Source of the DNA: Eledone cirrhosa
Lineage: Eukaryota
Direction of reading: 5' to 3'
DNA: 64,000 bases
Assembly (NCBI GenBank): GCA_964016885.1
Contig: OZ024742.1
Location: 331,080,001-331,144,000, forward strand
The notes beneath the pieces are model-generated. The model had not been told where the DNA came from. It worked only from the letters and a program-made list of their open reading frames with translations, and ran no database searches. Shown piece by piece: positions 59,276 to 60,222 of this stretch; position 1 is the first letter of the stretch; the number at the start of each line of letters is the position of its first letter. Both the position numbers and the translations under genes were made by a program.

Positions 59276-60222
59276 GTTAAAAGAATAGAGGTGTAACACA
59301 CAAGTTATTATATATTGGTAATGGGAATAGAAAATGCTGACAAATTGTTCACAGTTGAAAAATGTTTTTTTAGGAATAAAAGAGTATTAGTGATTGTATG
59401 GGTTAGTATTCAGTTGTGGTTTTAAGTTTTTAAGTTTTGTGGTGCTTCCTTCTTCGTTTGTTATAGGCTTGGGGGTTTGAGAAGTTGTTGTGCTGTTCAG
59501 TTATGGGTTTTCCTATTTTTATGAACGGGTTATTGGAGGTGTAATCCGTTTGAAAAGTCGATTCATAGTGTAGGAACCAAGCGGCACATTTTTCCCAGCG
59601 TTGAAGGGATTTCAGTTCTTCTCTGTTGCAGTCCCCTTTCCATAATTCGGAGATCTTCTCTACCTTGGGGCCTTCAGTTTTGTTGTTGATATTTGATTTA
59701 GAATCTCTTCATCGATGGTTTTGATTTTTTCCTCATTTGTTTGGGCCCTCAGTTTAAGAAGTTCAATTTCTGTCTTCATTTTTTCCAATGCCATTCTTTC
59801 CCTAAGGTGTCTTTGAGGTTCGGGTTCATTTGGAATGGACTTTATTTGTAGTTTACGGGGGAGAGTTAGAGGGGACTGCAACTTAGAGAGTTAAAGGGGA
59901 CTGCAACAGAGAAGAACTGAAATCCTTTCAACGCTGGGAAAAAATGTGCCGCTTGGTTCCTACACTATGAATCGACTTTTCAAACGGATTACACCTCCAA
60001 TAACCCGTTCATAAAAATAGGAAAACCCATAACTGAACCGCACAACAACTTCTAAAACCCCAAAGCCTCTAACAAACGAAGGAGGAAGCACCACAAAACT
60101 TAAAAACTTAAAACCACAACTGAATACTAACCCATACAATCACTAATACTCTTTTATTCCTAATGAAACCATTTTTTAACTGTGAACAATTTGTCAGCAT
60201 TTTCTATTCCCTTTACCAATAT
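59276..60222. mobile_element. Inverted chimeric PLE derivative: post-HHR segment fused to an ORF-like fragment
   Basis: Arms 59312-59639 / 59893-60222; outer ~125 bp match 21-146; inner part reads as a helical protein fragment on the minus strand. Confidence 0.85.

Follow-up and report, generated by a model that had tools for sequence, protein, structure and literature searches.

Sense RNA chimeras at predicted hammerhead cut sites of Penelope-like retrotransposons in Eledone cirrhosa: a likely genomic record of self-cleaved, ligated RNA

Introduction

Can a retrotransposon insertion preserve, to the base, the place where its RNA template was cut by a ribozyme? The question is raised by an inverted insertion in a 64,000-nucleotide stretch of Eledone cirrhosa DNA (hereafter the window), in which a segment that normally follows a hammerhead motif is joined, exactly at the predicted cleavage site, to other sequence. 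An earlier note on this DNA had taken the junction for a trace of self-cleavage in vivo, followed either by a jump of the reverse transcriptase (RT) to another RNA or by ligation of the cleaved RNA to it. Here, we describe the element and its hammerhead motif, compare the junction with joins sampled across the genome, and weigh the ways in which such joins could arise. Judging from sequence comparison, the junction probably derives from self-cleaved RNA that was likely ligated into a circle and then copied into the genome. Throughout, +1 denotes the base directly 3' of the predicted hammerhead cut, and element bases are numbered from it.

A young Penelope-like element with two termini

The junction belongs to a family, here called family 1, that is by its sequence features a young EN+ Penelope-like retrotransposon with a Neptune/Nematis-type linker. 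A 668-aa frame in the copy L031 holds an RVT_1 domain (E 1.5e-7) followed by a C-terminal GIY-YIG domain (E 3.5e-6), both passing the cut-off; natural copies have ORF breaks further upstream of this frame. The linker, CDRPNCGIC, and the (AT)n flanks agree with the CX2-5CxxC linker before GIY-YIG and the (TA)n targeting that the accessible part of PMC8557442 gives as Neptune features, the linker being common to Nematis. The unit of ~4.8 kb with its RT-EN ORF is arranged as ORF, 3' UTR, ribozyme and tail in L031, and as ribozyme, +1..+165 and an ORF from +193 in L045. Partial tandem and inverted copies resembling pLTRs, with the optional tail of EN+ Penelope-like elements, are present, and the pLTR carries a hammerhead motif on manual reading, Rfam being negative. 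The exact intact ribozyme junction occurs in 5,115 copies in the 3.0 Gb genome, and family 1 copies are mostly 96-99% alike.

Two termini recur. Among 409 tails, 247 end at +131 and 142 at about +165, matching the two internal RT start sites demonstrated in vitro for an anole element (PMC11167929, accessible part), and 109/126 inverted pairs combine one long with one short terminus. Where the pair is a simple inversion, it is the long arm that extends further in 49 cases and the short arm in 32, the two being equal in 15, which indicates that independent priming of both ends is usual. A strong inversion and truncation hotspot lies just upstream of the ribozyme, at the palindrome TCTGATCAGA around element base -75 (e.g. 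in L002, L015, L027 and L030). The window itself is dense in Penelope-like fragments, including 13178-15296 (+), 18243-19172 (+) and 10816-11397 (+); one of the three is 75% alike to family 1, and two are, by eye, GIY-YIG-like ends of different families. In the GC-rich stretch, 33368-37580 (+) holds a LINE-like RT fragment with a possible ORF1-like frame, according to translations read by eye.

Hammerhead motifs in three families

In the 5'-truncated copy with an intact ribozyme junction at one end of the window (Table 1), the minus strand reads UUGAAAA-stem II-GAAA-CCGG-UA^AAAAC, with UUU/AAA as stem I, the six pairs of GCAUUU/AAAUGC as stem II and a palindromic CCGG before UA^. The earlier note had reported a hammerhead at 143-180; here the motif spans 144-180, and standard hammerhead numbering places the cut at 147/146. 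The UUGAAAA core, a U3-A8 variant of a kind described, together with its covariation, in the accessible part of PMC4209133, is found in 213/215 family 1 copies. After stem II, GCAA (A13C) stands in 226/232 copies examined and GAAA in only two, the window copy among them; the GAAA conserved at this place in minimal type I hammerheads, which families 2 and 3 keep, is not the norm in family 1, whose motif is on account of its GCAA core filed as a hammerhead-like variant. This core is fixed in a young and very active family, and a literature search found no report of cleavage by it. Co-folding of L045 predicts a GCAUUU/AAAUGC hairpin and an intermolecular ACCGGU duplex, that is, a stem II and palindromic stem III able to form a dimer. 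Rfam reports no hammerhead in the window at the gathering score, and none at a relaxed E-value at the family 1, 2 or 3 motifs, the three that were tested.

The predicted cut contexts are GUA^AAAAC in family 1, GUA^AAGGA in family 2 and GUC^GGGGU in family 3. Two motifs of family 2, a related family, lie in the window as inverted partners (Table 1). In the family 3 hammerhead (L130:2830-2990; L199:1200-1350), which reads GAAACGGC...GCCGUC^GGGG, stem II is long and stem III stable, and the core occurs in both C3 and U3 forms. Further hammerhead-like motifs of other repeat families, with CUGAAGA and UUGAUAA cores, are seen in the window at 58758-58790 (+), 15776-15806 (+) and 29170-29225 (+).

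Table 1. Features of the window that bear on the junction (positions within the 64,000-nucleotide stretch; a slash separates the two bases flanking a cut)
Feature	Position	Strand	Basis
5'-truncated family 1 copy with intact ribozyme junction, element bases about 2462 to +131	16..2562	-	90-95% identity to L031, L045
Post-cut segment +1..+131 following the intact ribozyme junction; its short terminus lies in (AT)n	16..146	-	
Minimal type I hammerhead motif, family 1; predicted cut 147/146	144..180	-	manual motif reading
Another family 2 hammerhead motif, paired in inverted orientation with that at 23543..23580; predicted cut 22387/22386	22382..22419	-	
Family 2 hammerhead motif UUGAAAA...GAAACCGGUA^AAGGAACC; predicted cut 23575/23576	23543..23580	+	
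(AT)n target, left flank	59167..59275	.	sequence
Left arm, post-cut segment +1..about +165 (long terminus)	59274..59438	-	
Left arm donor, own ORF bases 563-996, sense, joined to +1	59439..59874	-	
Inversion centre: AGGGG microhomology and short patchwork of both arm ends	59870..59892	.	sequence
Right arm donor, ORF bases 796-996, sense, joined to +1	59893..60094	+	
Right arm, post-cut segment +1..+131 (short terminus)	60095..60225	+	
(AT)n target, right flank	60226..60284	.	sequence

The inverted insertion in the window

The insertion at 59274-60225 is flanked by (AT)n runs, and each of its arms joins base 996 of the element ORF to +1, GAAGCACCAC replacing the ribozyme immediately before +1 at 59438/59439 and 60094/60095. 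The four-A start of the post-cut sequence, which had been noticed in both arms, is confirmed at these positions. What precedes it had been described as unrelated ORF-like sequence, from a different or prematurely ended RNA; following the source of 59439-59860, as had been proposed, leads instead to the ORF of the same Penelope-like element, and the donor is the element's own RNA. That the break, at base 996, lies in the element's own RNA suggests a circle more than a second RNA. After base 996 the native ORF reads ACCG, which gives 1-nt microhomology, places the window join at +1 or +2 and makes this junction, by itself, weak evidence.

The inversion centre is likely the place where the two cDNA ends were joined. 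Of the rare variants in the two arms, one is common to both and 12 are private to one arm, too small a number to separate fold-back from twin priming, and the long-terminus arm reaches further than the short-terminus arm; copying of one arm from the other by fold-back is possible for this insertion. The earlier note had read the sharing of one junction by both arms as implying a pre-joined template or the copying of one arm from the other. Such sharing is frequent in family 1 (L072, L107, L127) and occurs at positions other than the cut as well (L072, L107, L156, L227), and it was dropped as special evidence.

Joins at +1 across the genome

Breakpoints were sampled genome-wide by sequence pattern, and the counts are those of samples, not of an exhaustive table. 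A sense donor is joined at +1 in 16 insertions, namely the element's own ORF in nine, rRNA in four, the 3' end of U6 in two and a host locus in one. The own-ORF donors end at bases 530 (L362), 956 (L360), 996 (the window), 1720 (L054), 2118 (L173), 2658 (L211), 3024 (L268), about 3490 (L356) and 3731 (L264). The rRNA donors are 18S in L188 and L258 and the 28S 3' end in L353 and L271 (a match of 14 nt only in L271), the two 28S donors running 8 and 12 nt past the point at which the Rfam 28S match stops on its 3' side. U6 is joined in L302 and L351, and the donor in L267 is a single-copy locus (L443), counted here as a putative sense donor. Three short local joins to +1 (L127, L195, L265) are ambiguous and are excluded from the 16. 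The allowed range of the join contains +1 in 13/14 non-U6 joins and, with one substitution, in L356; in L173, L211, L258, L271 and both U6 joins only +1 is possible, these six being without microhomology. Added bases are absent from 13/14 non-U6 joins, and a pyrimidine at the donor end in 9/14 is suggestive of a bias. As a separate observation, the 18S rRNA gene spans 2.9 kb (L343:3432-6309), an unusual length, and the rDNA unit measures ~19.6 kb.

Comparison with control positions indicates how far these joins concentrate at the cut. In the cut window, 80/106 rows of sample A were examined (20 others resemble the 8-nt unit duplications seen among those examined, and 6 are unlisted), together with 40/51 rows of sample B, whose remaining 11 resemble A-run shortenings. 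No donor join was found in the control window +24..26 (0/37, all rows examined), which holds 23 inversions, 11 local indels or deletions and 3 genomic or other repeats, nor in the sequence-matched control +7..9 with the same AAAAC context (0/47 examined of 64, the other 17 reading AAGT or TATA). Matched-pattern donor joins thus fall in the cut window in 14/14 cases (P about 1e-5), or 13/13 when the window event is left out (P about 3e-5 by the same formula); against +24..26 alone P is 1e-3, and these P values use pattern efficiencies estimated from ORF base composition. Among events not selected for their breakpoint, 6/8 lie at +1 (P about 1e-6), and in a non-random set of 446 tail copies an ORF, rDNA or U6 donor occurs in 16 rows, in each of them at the cut. 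At the level of the family, the pile-up of donor joins at +1 exceeds chance.

Two unselected samples define its extent. From 633 tails without an intact ribozyme end, 97 distinct rows were analysed; their breakpoints run from -1 to +77, with inversions and (AT)n truncations in the majority, the 12/97 rows at -1..+1 are for the most part hairpin inversions, unit duplications and (AT)n ends, and ORF, rRNA or U6 donors occur in 0/97. The second sample gave 113 matches, of which 92 were analysed and 8 more read as inversions or AT ends; it holds three donor joins, all at +1 (L173, L264 and L258), L054 having come from the ORF search. The samples do not support a pile-up at the cut for 5' ends in general, inversions numbering 22 rows in the cut set vs 23 at +24..26. 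The enrichment of breakpoints at the cleavage site that had been anticipated therefore stands for sense RNA-to-RNA chimeras and falls for 5' truncations and inversions generally.

There are exceptions. In L156:1270-1540 a tRNA gene-like donor with a 3' trailer (Rfam tRNA, 49 bits) is joined near +24-27 in both arms, and in L251 an insert is joined at +8 and +22. L107:1600-1800 is a single mirror-image case, in both arms of which an upstream piece stops at the cut (GGUA, 1-nt microhomology) and the sequence resumes at +23. In an older relative (L301:1000-1010, 2070-2090) the start of the tail is preceded in both arms by sequence ending GUC^A, which is either another ribozyme site or another chimera.

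Could the joins have been made without a cut RNA end? A DNA-level deletion, or a template slip at microhomology in the A-rich stretch, might have landed at +1, as the 1-nt microhomology of the window join would allow; local deletions round the ribozyme are common in family 1, and L127 (-103 to +1) can be read in this way. However, the ORF donors are located on the downstream side of +1 within the element; donors of rRNA, U6 and host sequence derive from elsewhere in the genome, each of them sense wherever its orientation is known; microhomology is missing from six joins; and at +9, which has the same AAAAC context, no donor join was seen among the rows examined. This explanation is largely refuted, and we assign it a very slender chance. 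Splicing or back-splicing fares worse still: Penelope-like elements do retain introns (PMC4209133 and PMC8557442, accessible parts), but +1 is preceded by GGUA and not by AG, GU follows none of the 14 non-U6 donor ends, and the donor ends are scattered, so that the junction sequences rule it out for practical purposes. Microhomology deletion and splicing, both of which had been named in advance as findings that would overturn the cleavage reading, are excluded as general causes by the six joins without microhomology and by the rRNA and U6 donors.

U6 joins in three hammerhead families

A search with the U6 3' end, which misses ends with C at the last pattern position, returned 97 matches that were read by eye over 55 nt. 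Among these, U6 is joined to family 1 solely at +1 (3 rows, 2 events), to family 2 solely at GUA^AAGGA (3 events) and to family 3 solely at GUC^GGGGU (4 rows, 3 events), and in intact copies of families 2 and 3 the hammerhead cores end at exactly the U6-joined bases. All 8 events are in sense, carry the full U-run end and show neither microhomology nor added bases. One of them, L445:836-1000 (G000:C4:274669700-274669950), has a full-length U6 (Rfam 1-105) at the predicted family 2 cut in both arms of an inverted insertion.

Other U6 sequences were met in the same search. In L447, U6 is joined to an older relative. Many rows show U6 3' ends attached to SINE-like repeats, with a point of attachment that varies as it does in LINE-type chimeras, and other rows have miscellaneous flanks. 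A tandem array at G000:C19:31778862-31840383 contains at least 22 U6-like copies, of which the one checked (Rfam 66.9 bits) is degenerate at its 5' end and carries an internal deletion.

The +1 end could be real and yet owe nothing to a ribozyme, if a transcription start or a protein nuclease happened to coincide with a degenerate hammerhead. The non-canonical GCAA core of family 1 and the absence of Rfam support would suit this explanation, but in three families, whose flanks differ, the joins hit the base that was predicted, and two of the three keep GAAA; we hold it to be improbable. Overall, +1 is very probably an RNA end made by the ribozyme in vivo.

Ligation or template jump

How was the cleaved end joined to its donor? 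Of the two routes that the earlier note had offered, ligation, which provides a pre-joined template, fits better, and an RT jump is the main rival. In L360:1432-2656 (G000:C7:55105800-55107100) one strand reads 821-956/+1...956/+1...+131, so that the same ORF/+1 junction occurs twice in tandem with a full unit, +1..956, between; this looks like rolling-circle-like copying of a 956-nt circular RNA over more than one round. In L054 the short-terminus arm (+131) reaches base 293 and the long-terminus arm (+165) only base 1535; neither arm can then be a fold-back copy of the other, and both must have crossed the junction on RNA. Of the two sources that had been considered for a junction shared by both arms, a pre-joined template agrees with L360 and L054, and copying of one arm from the other is excluded in L054, the window insertion being compatible with it.

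If instead the hammerhead made the +1 end and the RT, on reaching the cleaved 5' end, jumped to any free 3' end with no RNA ligation, the pile-up at +1 would be explained equally well, and the pair of donors from the 3' end of 28S would fit. Mature 28S ends carry a 3'-OH, which RtcB does not use; the two donors that run past the Rfam 28S end count against ligation, since theirs are possibly 3'-OH ends. Template switching is also a standing model for L1 chimeras (PMC11838501, accessible part). A jump, however, has to strike an identical base twice in L054 and in L360, in the latter on a cDNA-hybridised end (repeated jumps to one 3' end are possible), it has to leave no extra bases at 13/14 non-U6 joins, and it has to use U6 donors whose U-run end, according to the accessible part of PMC6789731, bears a cyclic phosphate. 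The same source describes RtcB joining cyclic-phosphate-ended U6 (U6>p) to 5'-OH RNA before L1 retrotransposition, and RtcB circularises hammerhead-cut retrozyme RNA in vitro (PMC7229834, accessible part). The L360 and L054 structures, together with these precedents, lead us to favour ligation, intramolecular for the ORF donors, and to think that the join was probably made before reverse transcription; a jump seems unlikely, though it keeps a fair claim to notice.

A proposed pathway

Junction positions, the identity and orientation of donors, and the two termini are observed; cleavage, the 5'-OH, ligation and priming are the interpretation that we place on them. In the proposed pathway, the hammerhead, probably as a dimer or aided by protein, would cut tandem transcripts after GUA and leave a 5'-OH at +1. 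A 2',3'-cyclic-phosphate ligase such as RtcB would then join this 5'-OH to an available 3' end. As a rule this partner would be the end left by the next ribozyme cut, by which the intact junction is restored and becomes indistinguishable from uncut RNA; rarely (about 16 events vs 5,115 intact junctions), an internal break, U6, an rRNA fragment or a host transcript would take its place. With an internal break in the same RNA as partner, a short circle would result, which for the window insertion would comprise +1..996. The element protein would open an (AT)n target, and each end could prime RT inside the RNA, at +131 and about +165, as the in vitro starts in the accessible part of PMC11167929 suggest. 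Both cDNAs would cross +1 into the donor, and their ends would be joined by microhomology, giving an inverted insertion with one junction in both arms.

More tentatively, Penelope-like elements may normally transpose via ribozyme-cleaved, RtcB-circularised RNA copied from two internal starts, with the chimeras as rare mis-ligations; we regard this wider model as rather doubtful. Against the proposed pathway stand the GCAA core of family 1, the negative Rfam results, and the experiments described in the accessible part of PMC11167929, in which cleavage was dispensable for insertion in vitro and no reads ended at the cut.

Relation to known systems

The element class, its hammerheads (PMC4209133, accessible part), inverted insertions and U6/L1 chimeras are already known. 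Family 1 shares with the EN+ Penelope-like elements of PMC8557442, PMC4209133 and PMC11167929, as presented in their accessible parts, a single ORF with RT and C-terminal GIY-YIG, a Cys-rich linker, (TA)n targets, inverted and partial-tandem insertions, an optional tail of 30-40 nt and two termini, as well as a minimal hammerhead with palindromic stem III and a U3-A8 core. Unlike those descriptions, as far as these parts go, it has chimeras with the acceptor fixed at the ribozyme cut, and a GCAA core. Cleavage of Penelope-like hammerheads and ligation into circles have been proposed, in the accessible parts of PMC4209133 and the review PMC6765202, without in vivo evidence.

U6/L1 chimeras made via RtcB (PMC6789731) and other RNA/L1 chimeras (PMC11838501) likewise have sense U6 with its U-run, or rRNA, fused 5' of a retrotransposon. 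In the accessible parts of these sources, however, the L1 acceptor is variably truncated, whereas here it is one ribozyme-set base in three families, and most donors here are the element's own RNA, in what would be circles. Non-LTR retrozymes and their circRNAs (PMC7229834; bioRxiv 10.64898/2026.07.22.740005; accessible parts) resemble the present case in type I hammerhead ends, RtcB circularisation in vitro and a proposed rolling-circle RT. They are described there as 170-400 nt non-coding tandem repeats, ribozyme-cut at both ends; family 1 differs as an autonomous element, its ~4.8 kb unit with an RT-EN ORF lying outside the retrozyme definition, and its putative circles would combine one ribozyme end with one random break. 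In full texts, a coverage outside which most subscription papers lie, we met no earlier description of chimeras that are fixed at the cut sites of Penelope hammerheads and no match for a U6 pseudogene together with Penelope.

Meaning for Penelope-like elements

The accessible part of PMC8557442 calls the function of Penelope-like hammerheads unclear and possibly parasitic, and whether these ribozymes cut in vivo, and why, is the question that the chimeras address. They appear to form a germ-line record, with base-exact sequence evidence in three families for a free 5' end at the predicted cut, and it looks as if this end was joined to other RNAs, the element's own RNA included, in an apparent circle. 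The chimeras also show one way in which host RNA is captured by these elements, and a search for abutting U6 or rRNA ends could be used on any genome to map active ribozyme cuts, non-canonical ones included. Should the tentative model of normal transposition via circularised RNA be right, genome sequence would be enough to locate active cut sites, to the base, by their U6-capped junctions, and a hammerhead whose core is the non-canonical GCAA would be shown to cleave in vivo.
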